Below are positions 7,207 through 15,183 of a stretch of DNA of 64,000 nt, one piece after another. The notes under the pieces were generated by a model that did no database searches, was not told the origin of the DNA, and was given only the letters and a program-made list of their open reading frames with translations. Every line of letters begins with the position of its first letter. The first letter of the stretch is position 1. Source of the DNA: an uncultured Ruminiclostridium sp. (GTDB lineage Bacteria > Bacillota > Clostridia > Oscillospirales > Ruminococcaceae); NCBI GenBank assembly GCA_944388385.1, contig CALXIO010000004.1:20226-84225 (forward strand), read 5' to 3'. The position numbers were made by a program, and so were the translations under genes.

Positions 7207-7992
7207 TTATAGCTGTCTTTTTATCTTCCCTAATGCGCCCTTTTCAAGTCTTGATACCTGTGCCTGACTTATTCCTATTTCGCTTGCCACCTCTACCTGG
7301 GTCTTGCCCTTGAAAAATCTTAAATCAAGAATATGCTTTTCCCTGTCATCAAGGGAATGAAGGGCATCCTTTAATACTATTTCATCAAGCCAGGTTCTGT
7401 CGTCGTTTTTATCCCCTATCTGATCCATCATATAGATAGTATCCCCGGATTCAGAATAAACCGGCTCATACAAAGAAACAGGGTCGCTTACCGCTTCTAA
7501 GGCTATTACTACATCATGCCTGTCAGTGTCTAACTCCTTTGCGATTTCTTCAACGGTGGCCTCCTTGCCTGATTTTGAGGTCAGCTTTTCCTTTGCCTGC
7601 ATGGCTCTGTAGGCAAGATCCCTCATGGATCTGCTTACCCTTACTGAATTGCTGTCCCTCATATACCGCCTTAATTCTCCCATTATCATAGGCACAGCAT
7701 AGGTGCTGAATTTTACCCCGAATTCGGTGGAAAAATTGTCTATGGCCTTTATAAGCCCTATGCACCCCACCTGAAACAGATCGTCCGGCGGCTCTCCCCT
7801 GCCTGCAAAACGCTGAATTACGCTTAATACAAGCCTCAGATTACCGCTTATAAGCTGTTCCCTTGCATTTTCATCCCCCTGCTTTATCTTTAAAAGCAGC
7901 TCGTTTTTCTCGGACTCCTTTAATACCTTTAAGGAGGAGGTATTAACACCGCTTATTTCAACCTTATTGTAATACAAAAAAACACCGCCCAT
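7207..7992 (-). CDS. sigG: Sporulation sigma factor G (forespore, late)
   Basis: NKVEISGVNTS...GNLRLVLSVIQRF...DDLFQVGCIGLIKAIDNF...VKFSTYAVPMIMGELRRY...GISQAQVSRLEK is collinear with B. subtilis SigG. The true start may be TTG 7977, because ATG 7992 lies inside a hairpin. Confidence 0.92.
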   Translation of the reverse strand: MGGVFLYYNKVEISGVNTSSLKVLKESEKNELLLKIKQGDENAREQLISGNLRLVLSVIQRFAGRGEPPDDLFQVGCIGLIKAIDNFSTEFGVKFSTYAVPMIMGELRRYMRDSNSVRVSRSMRDLAYRAMQAKEKLTSKSGKEATVEEIAKELDTDRHDVVIALEAVSDPVSLYEPVYSESGDTIYMMDQIGDKNDDRTWLDEIVLKDALHSLDDREKHILDLRFFKGKTQVEVASEIGISQAQVSRLEKGALGKIKRQL

Positions 7993-8019
7993 ACTTAAAA
8001 TCTTGTTTTAAGTATGGGC
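7987..8019 (-). promoter_or_regulatory. Perfect 14-bp stem-loop covering the sigG start codon and Shine-Dalgarno region
   Basis: GCCCATACTTAAAA - CAAGA - TTTTAAGTATGGGC on the minus strand, followed by GGTGTTTTTTTG. The 3' arm contains ATG 7992 and the GGGCGGTG SD-like sequence. Confidence 0.7.
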
Positions 8020-8038
8020 AGTTTGATTTAAATTATTC
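8009..8038 (-). promoter_or_regulatory. Candidate forespore (sigma F/G type) promoter of sigG
   Basis: GAATA, 17 nt, CATACTTA. This approximates GHATR-N17/18-CATxxTA with one -10 mismatch. The -10 lies in the 5' arm of the hairpin. Confidence 0.4.
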
Positions 8039-8045
8039 TGTAAAA

Positions 8046-10430
8046 TTATGCCAATGTAATATTGCACTTTTTACCGTTAAGGGTAGCTGATACTACCTTA
8101 GCATTTCCTAAGGCGAAATTTGCCGCAGGCTTGTTGGTTACTTCTCCGCCGGGAGCAATATATCCGTTATATGTGCTATTGATAATAATTTGATTTCCTT
8201 CTGATCCAGCGAAATCACCGTTCCAGCCATTAGCAAAATTTATATTCTCAGAAAAAGTAATAACAAGCTCCCAGGATTCTATAGCACTTGAAGTATCATT
8301 TACTATATTAAATGAATATGTACCTTCCCTATTATCCTGGTTCCATATATTTTCTCCGGAAATAGTTACACTCAGTTCTGTTATCACAGGCTTAGGTGCC
8401 GTGGTTGTGGTGGTTGTAGGTTTTGGGGTAGTAGTTGTGGTGGTAGGTTTTCTTGTGGTGGTTGTTGTGGGTCTTGGGGTTGTTGTAGTGGTAGTAGGTT
8501 TTCTTGTTGTAGTTGTTGTGGGTTTGGGAGTTGTTGTAGTGGTAGTGGGTTTTCTTGCTGTAGTTGTTGTGGGTCTTGGAGTTGTGGTAGTTGTTGTGGG
8601 ACGGGGTGAATTTGTGGTTGTGGTGGTGGGTTTTTTAGTGGTAGTGGTGGTTGAAGGCTTACTTTCCTCATCTGATGATGAGGGCTTATTTTCTTCGGTG
8701 GCTTCGGTTTCTTCAGGCTTTGAATCAGCTGTGTCAGTCTCCTCGTCGGTTTCATCCCCCGGCTCAGATGAATCTGTGCTTTCAGGCTGGGATGATCCTT
8801 CCCCGGTTTCCTCTGTGCTGTTTGCAGGAGGTACTATTATATTGTCACCGCCTGTGGTAGCATCTGCCGGAGTTGTTTCGACGGTGGTGGTAGTAGAAGC
8901 AGAGGAATTTTTGCTATCTGTTTTTGAGGTATCAACATCCACCTTATCTCTGCCTGTATAGGCAAGGCAAAGACAGATAAAGAAAATACCGATACATGAA
9001 AGTCCGCCGAAGAACCAAAAAAGGAACTTTTTCTTTTTCTTCTGCTTTTCGGGATCTTCCTCGTCAACCTGTACCGGAACCTCCGGCTCAGGCTCTTCCT
9101 TCTTGGGCTGAGGTCTGTGGGTAGCATAATAAAGCCTTGCCTCTGCCGCTGTTCTGGGTCTGTCTATCTGAGAAACCTCTGTTCTTTCATCGGGATTGAA
9201 TACAGTATCATCAAACAGCTTAGAGCCGGATGCCGCAGAAATGCCTGCCGCCGCTGTGCCTGCCGCTACAAAATTATCAAAGTCATCATTATTTGCCGCA
9301 GGCTTAGGCTCCTCAGTCTTTTTAGGCTGTGGGGGATGTGTGGCATAGTAAAGCCTTGCCTCTGCCGCAGTTCTTGGTCTGTCTATCTGAGAAACATCTG
9401 TTCTTTCATCGGGATTAAATACAGTATCATCAAACAGCTTAGAGCCGGATGCCGCCGCAACATCCTCTTTTTCGGATGCAAAAGTATCAGCAGACTGTGA
9501 TGCCATGAAATTATCAAAATCATCATTCTTAGCGGTATATGAGGGGGTAAACTGTTCAGTCTTGGGAGCTTCCGTTTTGGGAGGCTCTGTAACTGCTGCC
9601 CCGGCTGCCGCCGCTATGAAATTATCAAAGTCGTCATTATTGGCTGTGGGTAATGGCTCATCTGCCGGCTTTTCTTCCTGTGCCGCTTCGGCTGTTGCCA
9701 TTACATAATCATCAAAGGTAGCATAATCATCAGCGGAGGGTGTTTCATCCACCATAGAAGCAACAGCCGCAGCTGCAGCTACAGCCTCATCGGATGTACT
9801 ATCCTCTGTATTTGCCTTATCATCACCCTTATAATGCTCATGATTATCCGGGTCTTCCTCGGGAACATAGCCGTAGTATTCAATAGCCTCTCTTAAAATG
9901 GCCTCGTGGCGCTGTCTTTCAAGCTCCTCTGCCATTTCGGGAGTAACTCCCGGCTGCATATCCTCTACTATGGGTAAGGGCTCATCCTTTACAGGTGCAG
10001 ATGCTGAGGGACTGTCATCAATATCACTGTCAAATAAGAGAAGATCATCCATTGTCTTTGCAGATGCAACTTCCGCAGGAACAGGCTCACTGCCTGCTGA
10101 CAGATCATCATCCATACCTGCAGACAGATCGTCCTCGGTATCATAGATAACATCCTCGATATTAGCCGCTATCATATCAGCATCATAGTCGGCTGTTCTG
10201 GAGCTCATAAGTCCTGCAGATACAGTAACCGCATTACTAAAGCCGTCATCAGCAGGTCTTATTTCATCATCGTCCAGGTTTTCAAGGTCAATATCTCCGT
10301 TAAGATCACTAAGACCGTAACCCTCACGGCTCATTCTGAGGAGACTTGCCTCAAATTCATCACCCGGTGTAACGGGGCTGAAATCATCATTCATCCCGAA
10401 TACATTACCCTTTTTATTATTATTAGCCAA
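8046..10430 (-). CDS. Single-pass membrane protein: acidic repeat-rich cytoplasmic region, TM helix, Pro/Thr linker, C-terminal CBM2-like domain
   Basis: TTG start with GGGGA upstream. The TM helix FLFWFFGGLSCIGIFFICLCLAY (about 8958-9026) is preceded by KQKKKKK. PT repeats span 8385-8660. The last 112 aa (8049-8384) show CBM2-like spacing (SWELVITF, GWNGDF, NGYIAPGG, LNGKKC). Confidence 0.75.
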   Translation of the reverse strand: MANNNKKGNVFGMNDDFSPVTPGDEFEASLLRMSREGYGLSDLNGDIDLENLDDDEIRPADDGFSNAVTVSAGLMSSRTADYDADMIAANIEDVIYDTEDDLSAGMDDDLSAGSEPVPAEVASAKTMDDLLLFDSDIDDSPSASAPVKDEPLPIVEDMQPGVTPEMAEELERQRHEAILREAIEYYGYVPEEDPDNHEHYKGDDKANTEDSTSDEAVAAAAAVASMVDETPSADDYATFDDYVMATAEAAQEEKPADEPLPTANNDDFDNFIAAAAGAAVTEPPKTEAPKTEQFTPSYTAKNDDFDNFMASQSADTFASEKEDVAAASGSKLFDDTVFNPDERTDVSQIDRPRTAAEARLYYATHPPQPKKTEEPKPAANNDDFDNFVAAGTAAAGISAASGSKLFDDTVFNPDERTEVSQIDRPRTAAEARLYYATHRPQPKKEEPEPEVPVQVDEEDPEKQKKKKKFLFWFFGGLSCIGIFFICLCLAYTGRDKVDVDTSKTDSKNSSASTTTTVETTPADATTGGDNIIVPPANSTEETGEGSSQPESTDSSEPGDETDEETDTADSKPEETEATEENKPSSSDEESKPSTTTTTKKPTTTTTNSPRPTTTTTTPRPTTTTARKPTTTTTTPKPTTTTTRKPTTTTTTPRPTTTTTRKPTTTTTTPKPTTTTTTAPKPVITELSVTISGENIWNQDNREGTYSFNIVNDTSSAIESWELVITFSENINFANGWNGDFAGSEGNQIIINSTYNGYIAPGGEVTNKPAANFALGNAKVVSATLNGKKCNITLA
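8385..8660 (-). repeat. Coding low-complexity repeat: about nine units of T5-6 followed by (K/R)P, PRP or PKP
   Basis: Read directly from the translation (KPTTTTTTPKPTTTTTRKPTTTTTTPRP...). The 33-36 nt DNA periodicity is visible on the plus strand as GGTTGTGGTGGT-type units. Confidence 0.9.
9099..9530 (-). repeat. 219-nt (73-aa) tandem duplication inside the cytoplasmic region
   Basis: The cores 9099-9230 and 9318-9449 both encode SGSKLFDDTVFNPDERT(E/D)VSQIDRPRTAAEARLYYATH(R/P)PQPKK with only a few nucleotide differences. Each is preceded by an NDDFDNF motif. Confidence 0.9.
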
Positions 10431-10746
10431 AACAAAATTCCCCTTTGTAATTTGCTTTAAGCGAAATGTAATTTATATGTAGCTGGAAAGTTAAATAAAA
10501 ACAATATCACTTAGTGTAAATTGTAACATATTTAGAGTTGATTTTCAACATATTACTGATACTTTTTGTTATATATGTACAAAATTTTTCCTTGTTTTGT
10601 GCAATTCAACTACTTGTAATCCGTTACATTTAAGTAATAAGTTTGTCCGGGGAAAATATAAAAATAATATTGCATTTTTTTGAGAATAGTGTTATACTAA
10701 AAGTGGACTAAATTTATGCACTTTTGCAATGAAAGGATAGATCAAA

Positions 10747-11653: not shown

Positions 11654-12643
11654 ATGAAGGTTAAAGAACAGGTTCTTTTAATACTTGAAACAAACAAGGG
11701 AAAATATGTATCCGGTGAGGATATTGCAAAAGAGCTTTATGTAAGCCGTAATGCGGTATGGAAGGCTATAAATGCCCTGCGTAAGGACGGCTTTATAATA
11801 GATGCGGTTACAAATAAGGGGTATATGCTTGGTAAAGAGGCGGATGGCTTTACTGCCCTGAGAGTATCCTCCATGCTTAATAAAACCTGTCAGGATTGCG
11901 AAATAATTTTCTATGATACCATAACCTCCACAAACACCGTACTTAAGGAAATGGCGGAAAAGGGAGCAAAGGAAGGTACTATTCTTATAGCAGATACCCA
12001 GACAGAGGGCAGAGGCAGACGGGGACGAAGCTTCTTCTCCCCTGCCGGTACCGGTATATATATGTCGATTTTGCTTCGTCCGGGCTTTACCACCGATAAG
12101 GCCTCCCTTATTACGGTGCTTGCCGCTGTGTCGGTGGTAAGAGCAATAAAGGAAACAACAGACCTTCCTGTTAAAATCAAGTGGGTAAATGATATAATGC
12201 TTAATGATACTAAGATATGCGGTATTTTAACAGAGGCGGCGGCAGATATTGAGAATGGCCATTTACAATATGCGGTGGTGGGTATCGGTATAAATATTTC
12301 CATGCCTGAGGGGGGATTTCCCTATTATATAAATGATATTGCATCGGTTCTTTTTAATGATGAGGTTGTAATAAATGATGTAAGATGTTCGGTCAGTGCA
12401 AGGGTTATAAACAATTTCTTTGAGCTATACCATAATCTTAACGAAGCAAGGCTTATAAAGGAATATAAGGATAATTCCTGTATTTTGGGAAAAGAGGTAA
12501 GAGTATTTACCGGGGATGAAAGCTATATAGCTACTGCCCTTGATATAGATGAAAATGCCCACCTTATAGTAAAGGACAAAAATGACAGGATTTTAACTCT
12601 TACCTCCTCTGAGGTCAGCATAAGGAAAGGAGATCTGAATTGA
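11654..12643 (+). CDS. birA: Bifunctional biotin-[acetyl-CoA-carboxylase] ligase / biotin operon repressor
   Basis: N-terminal wHTH (GEDIAKELYVSRNAVWKAINALRKDG), catalytic GRGRRGR glycine-rich motif, KWVND motif. Confidence 0.92.
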   Translation: MKVKEQVLLILETNKGKYVSGEDIAKELYVSRNAVWKAINALRKDGFIIDAVTNKGYMLGKEADGFTALRVSSMLNKTCQDCEIIFYDTITSTNTVLKEMAEKGAKEGTILIADTQTEGRGRRGRSFFSPAGTGIYMSILLRPGFTTDKASLITVLAAVSVVRAIKETTDLPVKIKWVNDIMLNDTKICGILTEAAADIENGHLQYAVVGIGINISMPEGGFPYYINDIASVLFNDEVVINDVRCSVSARVINNFFELYHNLNEARLIKEYKDNSCILGKEVRVFTGDESYIATALDIDENAHLIVKDKNDRILTLTSSEVSIRKGDLN

Positions 12644-15183
12644 AAAGACTTGCAGTTTCAATAATGGCACACGTAGATGCAGGTAAGACCACCCTTTCTG
12701 AGGCTATGCTTTATCACACCGGGGATATAAGAAAGCAAGGCAGAGTAGATAACAAGGATACCCTTCTTGACAATAATCAGATAGAGCGAAGCAGAGGTAT
12801 TACAGTATTTTCAAAGCAGGCGATTTTGCATAATAACAATGATTTAATTACCCTTCTTGATACCCCGGGGCATACGGATTTTTCCGGGGAAACCGAAAGA
12901 GCCTTACAGGTAGCTGACTATGCGGTTTTACTTATCAGCGGTACAAGTGGAATACAAAACCATACCCATACATTATGGCAGTTATTAAAAAGCTACCGTG
13001 TGCCCACCTTTATTTTTGTAAATAAAATGGATATAAGCGAATTTTCAACAGAGGATTTAATGTCAAGGCTTTGCCTTAGCCTTGATGAAAGGTGTGTTTA
13101 TTTTGACAATGCCTGTGATGTTACTGAAAATGAGCTTGCGGACAATGTCGCGGTATGTGATGAGGGGCTTATGAATGAGTACCTTGAAAAGGGTAATATT
13201 TCCCCCTCAAATATTGCAAGGGCTATTAAGGAAAGGCATCTTTTCCCCTGCTTTTTCGGGTCGGCGCTTAAAAACAAGGGTATTGAGAATTTGCTGAAGG
13301 CTCTTGATATATACACCACAGAGCCTGTATATAATGAGGAATTTTCCGCTACGGTGTTTAAGATAACCGAGGACGAGCACGAAAACCGCCTTACCCATTT
13401 AAAGGTGACAGGTGGTACACTTAAAGTTAAAAGCAGTATAAAAACCGCTGATGACTGTGAAGAAAAGGTAAATGCCATAAGGATATATTCCGGGGGTAAG
13501 TTTATTACCGCCTCTGAGGTTCCCTGCGGTACTGTGTGCTGTGTTACCGGCCTTGAAAAAACCTACAGCGGACAGGGACTTGGATATTCTGCGGACTCTC
13601 CCCTGCCGGTACTGGAGCCGTTATTTTCCTACAAGGTGGAATTGCCCCCTGATATGGACGCTGTAAAGGGTCTTGCCATGATGAAGAAATTGGAGCAGGA
13701 GGACCCTCTTTTACAGGTTGTGTGGAATGAGCAGTTAAAGGAAATCCACATAAGGCTTATGGGGGAAATTCAGCTTGAAATACTGAAAAGCGAGGCTGAA
13801 AAACGCTTCGGGGTTAAGATAGATTTCGGCAAGGGCAGTATTGCTTACCGTGAAACAATAGCCTCCCCTGTTATCGGCATAGGACACTATGAGCCGTTAC
13901 GACATTATGCAGAGGTACAGCTTTTGCTTGAGCCGGGGGCTGAGGGCAGCGGGCTGAGATTTTATTCCGAATGTAGCGAGGATAAACTGGACAGAAACTG
14001 GCAAAGACTTATTCTTACCCACCTTGCAGAAAAGACCCACGTGGGGGTGCTTACAGGCTCACCCATAACGGATATGAAAATTTTCCTTATAGCAGGTCGT
14101 TCCCACCTTAAGCATACCGAAGGGGGAGATTTCAGACAGGCGGTTTACAGGGCGGTAAGACAGGGTCTTATGAAGGCGGAAAGCGTTCTTTTAGAGCCAT
14201 GGTACAGCTTTAATCTTGCATTACCCTCTGACTGTGTGGGAAAGGCTATGAATGATCTTTCTCTTATGAAGGCGGAGTTTTCACAGCCAGTTAATGAGGG
14301 GGATGAATATATAATCACCGGCACAGCCCCGGCATCGGGAATGACGGGATATTTATCCCAGGTTACCGCCTATACAAGGGGTAAGGGCAGGCTTATATGT
14401 ATTCCCGACGGATATAAGCCCTGTCTTAATAGTGAAGAGGTAATAGCAAGCTTTAATTACGACCCGGAGGCGGATATTGAAAATACCCCGGATTCTATCT
14501 TCTGTTCCCATGGGGCAGGCTTTAATGTAAAGTGGGATGAGGTGGATAACTACGCCCATATTTCCCTTCAGAAGGAAAAGGATGAGGAGCCGGAAATTAA
14601 AACAGTACAGCAAAGAAGAATTGACGCTTCAGATGAAGAGCTGATGGCAATTTTTGAACGTACCTACGGCAAGATAAAAAGAGATCAGCATTATGCCATG
14701 AGAAAAATCCCGGAGAAAAAGCAGGAAAATAAAACAAGGGCGGCTAAAATTCCCTCCGGGCCTGAATATCTGCTGGTGGACGGGTATAATATAATTTTTG
14801 CCTGGGATGAGCTTAAAAAGGCGGCGGCGGAAAATCTTGACTTTGCAAGAAATAAGCTGATTAACATTCTCTGTAACTATCAGGGCTTTAAGCGAAATGA
14901 GGTTATAGTGGTATTTGATGCCTATAAGGTTAAAGGAAATAAGGGTGAAGCGGAAAGACAGGGCGGCATCACCATTGTATATACAAAGGAAGCAGAAACT
15001 GCGGATATGTATATAGAAAAGGCCACCCGTACCCTTGGCAAAAAGCACAGAGTAAGAGTGGCTACATCAGATTCACTTGAACAGCTTATTATACTGGGAG
15101 GCGGTGCCATAAGGGTTTCCGCAAATGAATTTAAGGCTGAGGTTTTGGATATAGAAAAGCAGATAAAGGAATATTTAAGCTGA
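12640..15183 (+). CDS. EF-G/TetM-like translational GTPase fused to a C-terminal Rae1/YacP-type NYN ribonuclease domain
   Basis: G1 AHVDAGKTT, G3 DTPGH, G4 NKMD, and collinear with five-domain TetM/EF-G to about residue 640. Residues 709-847 (nt 14764-15183) have LLVDGYNIIFAW, VIVVFDAY, TKEAETADMYIEK, VATSDSLEQ and GAIRVSANEF, matching B. subtilis Rae1/YacP motif for motif. The TTG start overlaps the birA stop by 4 nt. Confidence 0.85.
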   Translation: MKRLAVSIMAHVDAGKTTLSEAMLYHTGDIRKQGRVDNKDTLLDNNQIERSRGITVFSKQAILHNNNDLITLLDTPGHTDFSGETERALQVADYAVLLISGTSGIQNHTHTLWQLLKSYRVPTFIFVNKMDISEFSTEDLMSRLCLSLDERCVYFDNACDVTENELADNVAVCDEGLMNEYLEKGNISPSNIARAIKERHLFPCFFGSALKNKGIENLLKALDIYTTEPVYNEEFSATVFKITEDEHENRLTHLKVTGGTLKVKSSIKTADDCEEKVNAIRIYSGGKFITASEVPCGTVCCVTGLEKTYSGQGLGYSADSPLPVLEPLFSYKVELPPDMDAVKGLAMMKKLEQEDPLLQVVWNEQLKEIHIRLMGEIQLEILKSEAEKRFGVKIDFGKGSIAYRETIASPVIGIGHYEPLRHYAEVQLLLEPGAEGSGLRFYSECSEDKLDRNWQRLILTHLAEKTHVGVLTGSPITDMKIFLIAGRSHLKHTEGGDFRQAVYRAVRQGLMKAESVLLEPWYSFNLALPSDCVGKAMNDLSLMKAEFSQPVNEGDEYIITGTAPASGMTGYLSQVTAYTRGKGRLICIPDGYKPCLNSEEVIASFNYDPEADIENTPDSIFCSHGAGFNVKWDEVDNYAHISLQKEKDEEPEIKTVQQRRIDASDEELMAIFERTYGKIKRDQHYAMRKIPEKKQENKTRAAKIPSGPEYLLVDGYNIIFAWDELKKAAAENLDFARNKLINILCNYQGFKRNEVIVVFDAYKVKGNKGEAERQGGITIVYTKEAETADMYIEKATRTLGKKHRVRVATSDSLEQLIILGGGAIRVSANEFKAEVLDIEKQIKEYLS

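Follow-up and report, generated by a model that had tools for sequence, protein, structure and literature searches.

A predicted one-helix membrane protein of an uncultured Ruminiclostridium species with a CBM2 module and an acidic, repeat-bearing cytoplasmic tail

The window analysed here, a stretch of 64,000 nucleotides (nt) from an uncultured Ruminiclostridium species (contig CALXIO010000004.1 of assembly GCA_944388385.1, positions 20,226 to 84,225), contains directly upstream of the sporulation sigma factor gene sigG an uninterrupted reading frame of 794 codons (window 8046..10430, minus strand). By sequence its product belongs to a family of only two lineages, and is a rare membrane protein with one helix and no conserved gene partner. 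We give a roughly even chance to the explanation that the protein, non-catalytic and tethered to the membrane, binds insoluble beta-glycan at the cell surface and has a disordered docking tail in the cytoplasm. According to this explanation, an internal signal-anchor helix would keep the protein in the cytoplasmic membrane, and about 190 residues of Ser/Thr/Glu-rich spacer and Pro/Thr linker would carry the C-terminal domain through and, as we suppose, past the Gram-positive wall. There a family-2 carbohydrate-binding module (CBM2) of the CBM2a type would bind with its planar aromatic face (W696/W736/Y754) to the surface of an insoluble beta-1,4-glycan such as cellulose or chitin, so that the cell, or its membrane, would be tethered to the substrate. 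On the inner side, the acidic disordered tail with its conserved juxtamembrane helix motif (SQI..PRT..EARLYYA..RP..KK) and its lineage-specific acidic-aromatic NDDFDNF repeats would dock cytosolic partners. The gene would form a transcription unit by itself, which starts at a housekeeping-type promoter and ends ahead of sigG.

Architecture of the protein and its C-terminal module

The gene and the segments of its product are located in the window as follows (aa, amino acids).

8046..10430, minus strand: coding sequence, 794 aa plus stop, with a TTG start codon at 10430..10428
10440..10446, minus strand: ribosome-binding site AAAGGGG, 9 nt 5' of the TTG start, read directly from the sequence
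9027..10430, minus strand: residues 1-468, Ala/Asp/Glu/Pro-rich acidic region free of Cys (by composition), predicted to be cytoplasmic and mostly disordered
8958..9026, minus strand: residues 469-491, predicted single transmembrane helix FLFWFFGGLSCIGIFFICLCLAY (by hydrophobicity), with KQKKKKK directly N-terminal; a helix also in the AF2 model
8661..8957, minus strand: residues 492-590 (99 aa), predicted extracellular low-complexity spacer rich in Ser, Thr, Glu and Asp (by composition), no domain match
8385..8660, minus strand: residues 591-682 (92 aa), Pro/Thr linker of TTTTT-P-[KR]-P repeats with a 51-nt period in the DNA
8049..8384, minus strand: residues 683-794, CBM2 domain with the aromatic triad W696, W736 and Y754 and a C-terminal LNGxxC motif

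An earlier note on this DNA, made from the letters alone, had divided the protein into a 468-aa acidic N-terminal region, a Lys cluster with one helix, a 99-aa spacer, a 92-aa Pro/Thr linker and a 112-aa C-terminal domain, and by composition these boundaries were accurate. Residues 1-468 contain 110 Asp and Glu against 40 Lys and Arg, which gives a net charge of -70, and not a single Cys; the linker consists of 54 Thr and 17 Pro among its 92 residues. On the opposite strand the linker can be read as a 186-aa 'ORF' with runs of Val and Gly (window 8401..8961, plus strand), which is an artefact of antisense reading.

Kyte-Doolittle analysis with 19-residue windows yielded a single cluster of values above 1.6, at window starts 468-476 with a peak of 2.31, the next best value in the whole protein being 1.04. 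The helix is flanked by QVDEEDPEKQKKKKK, which includes the KQKKKKK cluster, on its N-terminal side and by TGRDKVDVD on its C-terminal side. Because the Lys cluster precedes the only helix and the protein has no N-terminal signal peptide, the positive-inside rule predicts an N-in/C-out orientation, and we infer that the protein is a bitopic type II membrane protein, with the carbohydrate-binding module outside and the repeats inside, as the note had placed them. A lipoprotein or a protein with a cleaved signal peptide was ruled out, since the helix starts at residue 469 and there is no lipobox.

The resemblance of the C-terminal domain to CBM2, noticed earlier from a few spaced motifs, was borne out by profile and structure comparisons. 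The Pfam model CBM_2 (PF00553) scored 36.8 bits when the full-length sequence was scanned (match at residues 704-789) and 41.2 bits when the domain was scanned by itself (residues 683-794), the gathering score being 24, and the NCBIfam model for the CbhB C-terminal region matched with an E-value of 3e-7. In a search of PDB sequences the only significant matches were the CBM2a of Cellulomonas fimi Cex (1EXG, E 1.3e-3; 6QFS) and the CBM2 of C. cellulovorans EngD (3NDY). Given an alignment of three sequences, AF2 modelled the domain as an all-beta sandwich with moderate confidence (pLDDT 66.9, pTM 0.67). When this model was compared with the PDB by Foldseek, the top matches were all CBM2 cellulose- or chitin-binding modules (6qfs, 3ndy, 1exg and 2rtt; E 3e-7 to 3e-4, TM-score 0.64-0.77), with 6qfs as the best (E 3e-7, TM-score 0.70/0.76). 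Judged by sequence and predicted fold, the domain is a true CBM2.

In a five-way alignment W17, W54 and W72 of Cex aligned with W696, W736 and Y754. The third site of the binding face is Tyr in EngD as well, and all three positions are aromatic also in P0003 and in the CBM2 of the L012 protein, both described below. This triad points to a type-A module, a predicted binder of crystalline surfaces such as cellulose or chitin; both the binding of glycan and its specificity are predictions from the sequence. A disulfide between an N-terminal and a C-terminal Cys is typical of actinobacterial CBM2a modules, but it does not define them. The only Cys of the domain is the C-terminal C789, with none near the domain start; therefore the terminal disulfide of the Cex type is absent.

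The cytoplasmic tail and its homologues

Four long contigs of other assemblies encode an identical protein, with the same neighbouring genes in those shown, and the cluster of the protein at 90% identity has nine members, from ENA, NCBI and Logan. We conclude that the gene is real and recurs within a single uncultured species. The coding sequences in loci L001 and L002 are identical. The nearest genomes of the GTDB species set, as judged by SigG identity (at most 84%), are gut metagenome-assembled genomes (MAGs) labelled Ruminiclostridium, Ruminococcaceae or Oscillospiraceae; their isolate names point to deer colon or rectum as the source of some, and 'Lapin' probably denotes rabbit.

Residues 1-468 had no match in Pfam, NCBIfam or the PDB sequences, even at permissive thresholds. 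In the AF2 model of residues 138-500 the pLDDT was below 50 at 202 of the 363 residues (mean 52); the model was built from a single sequence and is of low confidence, but it is indicative of disorder with short helices only, namely residues 164-186, each of the AAEARLYYAT segments and the transmembrane helix. The tail carries the following repeats.

9618..9638, minus strand: NDDFDNF copy 1, residues 265-271 (motif scan)
9507..9527, minus strand: NDDFDNF copy 2, residues 302-308 (motif scan)
9270..9290, minus strand: NDDFDNF copy 3, residues 381-387 (motif scan)
9318..9460, minus strand: module copy 1, SGSKLFDDTVFNPDERTDVSQIDRPRTAAEARLYYATHPPQPKK, residues ~324-371, distal (repeat comparison); missing in the P0002 allele
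9099..9241, minus strand: module copy 2, SGSKLFDDTVFNPDERTEVSQIDRPRTAAEARLYYATHRPQPKK, residues ~397-444, juxtamembrane; kept in P0003, with 13/21 identical residues in the core

The three NDDFDNF copies reported earlier, and a degenerate DDYATF, were found at residues 265, 302, 381 and 234, respectively. All three copies of NDDFDNF stand in the context A[NK]NDDFDNF[IMV]A, and the differences between their DNA sequences are synonymous only. The tandem duplication, described in the note as nearly identical over 73 aa, does have a period of 73 aa (219 nt), but near-identity extends over only ~47 aa. At the DNA level the two copies share 89% identity across 143 nt, which means that the duplication did not arise just recently. 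Their 39-codon core differs by 8 synonymous and 3 non-synonymous changes (pS 0.29, pN 0.034, pN/pS ~0.12), and the peptide of both copies looks constrained.

Whole repeat units of the tail (window 9099..9650, minus strand) have been gained or lost among the alleles of the species (P0002, P0004, P0008, P0009), which are 726, 762, 794 or 799 aa long, whereas the length of the Pro/Thr linker plus CBM2 is constant. The 726-aa allele P0002 lacks one 73-aa module (the distal copy 1), the 762-aa allele P0009 lacks a 37-aa unit between NDDFDNF copies 1 and 2, and the 799-aa alleles have an additional VAAAG. The codons of the 794-aa protein and of P0002 differ by no more than 3 synonymous and 4 non-synonymous changes, too few for a population estimate of the ratio of non-synonymous to synonymous substitution rates (dN/dS).

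An exhaustive phmmer search with residues 1-500 against 1.84 billion representative proteins retrieved only P0002, from the same species, and P0003, a protein of 627 aa (E 1.4e-4). The designation 'orphan' in the note was thus nearly right, with one distant homologue of the same architecture as the exception. P0003, 35% identical to the 794-aa protein, is built to the same plan: a MAKKKN... start (the N-terminus MA[NK]3 is common to both), an acidic low-complexity region, a Lys cluster, one helix, a Ser/Thr-rich spacer, a Pro/Thr linker and a C-terminal domain of the CBM2 clan, which matches Pfam CBM49 with 23.8 bits (gathering score 23.4). Over most of its length the tail shows no conservation between the two. 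The only conserved cytoplasmic segment is VSQIDRPRTAAEARLYYATHR versus ISQITKPRTIEEARLFYANYR in P0003, with 13 of 21 residues identical (pairwise E 1e-6); it continues as RP..KK.EPE.E and lies ~29 residues from the helix in both proteins. The juxtamembrane motif can be written as [VI]SQI[DT][RK]PRT..EARL[YF]YA..RP..KK. NDDFDNF does not occur in P0003, which bears acidic-Phe repeats of its own (EELFG and EDLFG). Of the putative docking motifs whose conservation the note had proposed to check, the juxtamembrane RPRTAAEARLYY core thus is conserved in the only distant homologue, but NDDFDNF is not.

Further occurrences were sought in several ways. A six-frame regular-expression scan of 1.06 Mb of compared loci found the motifs only in the protein itself, its strain variants and P0003, and JGI metagenome contigs contained no match to a degenerate DNA version of QI..PRT..EARL[YF]Y. 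When GTDB genomes were searched with the complete protein, and JGI metagenomes with the alignment, no relative appeared among the 600 stretches listed; these were filled by hits to largely low-complexity patterns, and true matches may have been crowded out. Word-indexed protein searches with the C-terminal domain and with an alignment of motif, transmembrane helix and CBM2 gave no match and did not recover even the query's own protein, so that they carry no weight as a negative result. For the motif strings no match was found in the literature.

These features could be taken to mean that the protein is an evolutionary remnant or a low-complexity expansion whose tail has no specific function, for instance an anchored glycoside hydrolase (GH) that has lost its catalytic domain and whose tail has grown by repeat slippage. 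The gain and loss of whole repeat units among strain variants, the absence of most of the tail's sequence from P0003 and the existence of an anchor-CBM2-GH5 version in a related MAG (see below) would fit such a history. We nevertheless consider it very unlikely. The reading frame is intact and at least 97% identical over many independent assemblies; the start, the architecture and the juxtamembrane motif have been kept in a homologue of only 35% identity; the repeat copies differ mostly at synonymous sites, and the aromatic residues of the CBM2 binding face are retained. The mostly synonymous divergence of the copies and the conservation of the RPRTAAEARLYY core in P0003 fit a functional short linear motif, and most likely the motifs dock one or more cytosolic partners.

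Several points weigh against the tethered-binder explanation. The orientation in the membrane was derived solely from the hydrophobicity values plus the positive-inside rule, the N-terminal Cys that takes part in the Cex disulfide is missing from the CBM2, whose model is of moderate confidence (pLDDT 67), and the promoter and terminator (see below) are consensus and energy predictions. The family is tiny, which makes arguments from conservation thin, and the estimate of selection comes from few sites (8 synonymous versus 3 non-synonymous changes). Finally, 468 cytoplasmic residues exceed the need of a simple adhesin, which suggests an additional function. In a more far-reaching interpretation, which we regard as distinctly unlikely, the protein and P0003 would found a new class of bitopic polysaccharide receptors, in which an outside CBM2 is coupled to a disordered scaffold in place of a folded domain of the anti-sigma or kinase kind. 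Depending on the substrate, for example by way of mechanical pull or shedding, the juxtamembrane module and the acidic-aromatic repeats would then bind a regulator or an enzyme complex of the cytosol, or sequester it.

If the tail truly docks cytosolic partners, the protein would be a minimal example of how contact with an insoluble substrate is relayed into the cell of a fibre-degrading gut Firmicute although no known signalling domain takes part, and the few short linear motifs on record for bacteria would be joined by a defined, testable one.

The neighbouring sigG gene and the transcription unit

The gene downstream (7207..7992) encodes SigG, as the note had stated (NCBIfam PRK08215, 404.6 bits; cut-off 372). 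Two predicted signals delimit the transcription unit of the membrane protein.

10520..10548, minus strand: sigma-70-type promoter-like site TTGAAA-17-TGtTACAAT with an extended -10 (TG), 10 of 12 consensus matches, ~90 nt upstream of the start codon
7984..8022, minus strand: predicted intrinsic-terminator hairpin with a 17-bp stem, followed by GUUUUUUU (U7), located between the stop codon of the gene and sigG, with the 3' arm reaching into the start region of sigG

The hairpin has a folding energy of -27.5 kcal/mol (z -6.6), and none of 200 shuffled sequences folded as well. The promoter-like site is presumably used. No sigma gene other than sigG was seen within the 22-kb neighbourhood. In 80 sigG loci from related species the gene was never found upstream of sigG; this place is taken by an ORF of ~100 aa in the closest loci and in many others by one of ~235-240 aa, probably sigE, and it varies in the rest. 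None of the other neighbours of the gene flank sigG in the 17 closest loci, and the gene 3' of that for P0003 encodes a Na+/H+ antiporter, not SigG. Taking together the gene's own promoter-like site, the terminator, the lack of sigG at the P0003 locus and the 0/80 count, the adjacency to sigG is species-specific and looks incidental. Conserved synteny with sigG, for which the note had proposed a check, was not found, and the link between polysaccharide and sporulation, which it had called speculative, should be dropped. A role as anti-sigma-G factor was also considered; the known factors of this kind, CsfB/Gin and Fin, are small soluble proteins, and as the protein has no similarity to any anti-sigma domain, this role was rejected.

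The vicinity of sigG and of further housekeeping and division genes (FtsK/SpoIIIE and SecA) would also be compatible with an envelope or morphogenesis landmark comparable to MapZ, FtsN, DamX or RodZ, the CBM2-like module sitting on the cell's own wall glycan and the tail recruiting division, elongation or sporulation machinery. The general bitopic plan is that of MapZ (PMC7055233, PMC4931243), and there is a weak RodZ_C match, which is below threshold (E 0.006, 16.9 bits; cut-off 23.9) and overlaps the CBM2 match. We think this highly improbable, considering that the planar aromatic triad is typical of modules binding crystalline cellulose or chitin, that the closest relatives of the module are attached to glycoside hydrolases, and that no MapZ, SPOR or LysM domain or RodZ helix-turn-helix reached threshold in the protein. 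Moreover, a core factor would be expected to be widespread, whereas this protein is confined to two lineages, and the synteny with sigG is not conserved.

Some observations concern sigG and the other neighbours. The 3' arm of the terminator covers a GGGCGG stretch and the first codons of sigG (window 7984..8038, minus strand). The sequence GAATA (8038-8034), followed after 17 nt by CATACTTA (8016-8009), resembles a forespore promoter of the sigma-F/G type. A transcript starting from this putative promoter would not include the hairpin's 5' arm, so that sigG would be translated only from its own promoter, a close parallel to the way in which read-through into sigG is reported to be controlled in B. 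subtilis. The acidic ~100-aa ORF directly upstream of sigG is conserved in the closest GTDB relatives (L004 6574..6876, L006 6630..6932, L009 6602..6904 and L011 6623..6943, plus strand); it contains RRITGYLVGTLDRFNNAKKAEVEDRVKH, and may resemble the C-terminal glycyl-radical region of anaerobic ribonucleotide reductase. Elsewhere in the window (12640..15183, plus strand) an 847-aa fusion combines a complete EF-G-like translational GTPase (GTP_EFTU and EF-G domains 2, III, IV and C) with a C-terminal NYN ribonuclease domain of the YacP/Rae1 type (residues 711-844, 167 bits), and could be a ribosome-targeted RNase.

Comparison with known systems

In polysaccharide sensors of the RsgI type one transmembrane helix separates a cytoplasmic N-terminus from a disordered linker outside the cell, which leads to a C-terminal glycan-binding module; their juxtamembrane SEAL domain undergoes autoproteolysis, which constitutes the site-1 cleavage (PMC10556640). 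The 794-aa protein shares with RsgI1-9 of C. thermocellum and RsgI of B. subtilis the single helix with N-in/C-out orientation (assigned by the positive-inside rule), the disordered outside linker rich in Ser, Thr and Pro, the C-terminal sensor-type module and a Firmicutes host with a fibre-degrading lifestyle; the note had rightly remarked on this likeness of layout. It also had seen no RsgI_N or zf-HC2 domain, and none was found in the Pfam (E up to 1-10) and NCBIfam scans, nor did residues 1-468 match any PDB sequence. Since the N-terminal half has no Cys, a zf-HC2 domain (ZAS; H-x3-C-x2-C) is excluded. The cytoplasmic folded domain of RsgI proteins comprises ~50-60 aa, whereas here 468 aa of acidic disorder take its place. 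RsgI proteins carry CBM3, PA14, CBM42 or GH modules; the module here is a CBM2.

On this background the protein may be asked to act as an RsgI-like transmembrane polysaccharide sensor: binding or pull at the CBM2 would lead to loss of the ectodomain and intramembrane proteolysis, or to a conformational change, by which the tail would be released or unmasked, the juxtamembrane motif holding a regulator (a sigma or another transcription factor). Such sensing is possible, though in our estimate unlikely. The positive evidence for it consists of the layout, which matches that of the RsgI proteins (PMC10556640), and of the conserved motif at a fixed distance from the membrane; in addition, the tail is far longer than an anchor requires. 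On the other hand, the Cys-free tail has no recognizable anti-sigma domain of any kind, no regulator gene, sigI-like or otherwise, is adjacent and co-transcribed (the one sigma gene in the vicinity, sigG, lies downstream behind the predicted terminator), and no partner gene is conserved between the two homologues. No folded SEAL-like domain follows the helix: residues 492-590 are Thr/Ser/Glu/Asp low complexity without a Pfam match, as tested at the sequence level. Because the outside juxtamembrane stretch is of this type, the known signalling mechanism of RsgI cannot be assumed.

In MapZ (LocZ) of Streptococcus pneumoniae, one transmembrane helix joins a disordered cytoplasmic N-terminal domain to a glycan-binding domain that a Ser-rich linker carries outside the cell (PMC7055233, PMC4931243). 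The likeness lies in the single helix, the largely disordered N-terminal cytoplasmic domain, which in MapZ docks a cytosolic partner, and the outside glycan-binding domain on a flexible linker; it is a functional analogy only, with no relationship of sequence or domains. The binding partners of MapZ are peptidoglycan and FtsZ, and it is found widely among streptococci, whereas the present protein carries a CBM2 and is restricted to two lineages.

With the CBM2a modules of Cex and EngD (1EXG, 6QFS, 3NDY) the C-terminal domain has in common the Pfam family, the predicted fold (TM-score ~0.7), the W/W/(W or Y) binding face and the NG..GG and LNGxxC motifs. It differs by its sequence (20-25% identity) and by the missing N-terminal Cys. 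The modules of Cex and EngD are parts of secreted enzymes, whereas this one sits on a membrane anchor with a cytoplasmic tail.

The relative that is most informative by its architecture, a combination of anchor and module, was found in a related MAG (SigG 77% identical), where locus L012 (JBJERM010000138.1, 2857..5169, minus strand) encodes a 770-aa membrane-anchored CBM2-GH5 endoglucanase. Its gene and sigG run towards each other, the end of this gene lying ~40 nt downstream of sigG. In the enzyme a short cytoplasmic N-terminus of low complexity leads into the only helix, after which come a linker rich in Thr, the CBM2 (50.9 bits) and the GH5 cellulase domain (167 bits). It resembles the 794-aa protein in its Lys-rich start, low-complexity cytoplasmic segment, single transmembrane helix and Thr-rich linker, and the two CBM2 domains, 29% identical, have the same aromatic triad. 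The differences are the GH5 domain after the CBM2, the cytoplasmic segment of only ~85 aa and the absence of both SQI..PRT..EARLYYA and NDDFDNF. This architecture suggests that the clade anchors fibre-active modules in the membrane by N-terminal signal-anchors. Even if the 794-aa protein is only a tether, it would indicate that an uncultured clade anchors CBM2, with a GH5 cellulase in a relative, directly in the membrane in this way, unlike cellulosome or sortase anchoring. The protein looks like a non-catalytic version of the L012-type anchor with a greatly enlarged, motif-bearing tail.

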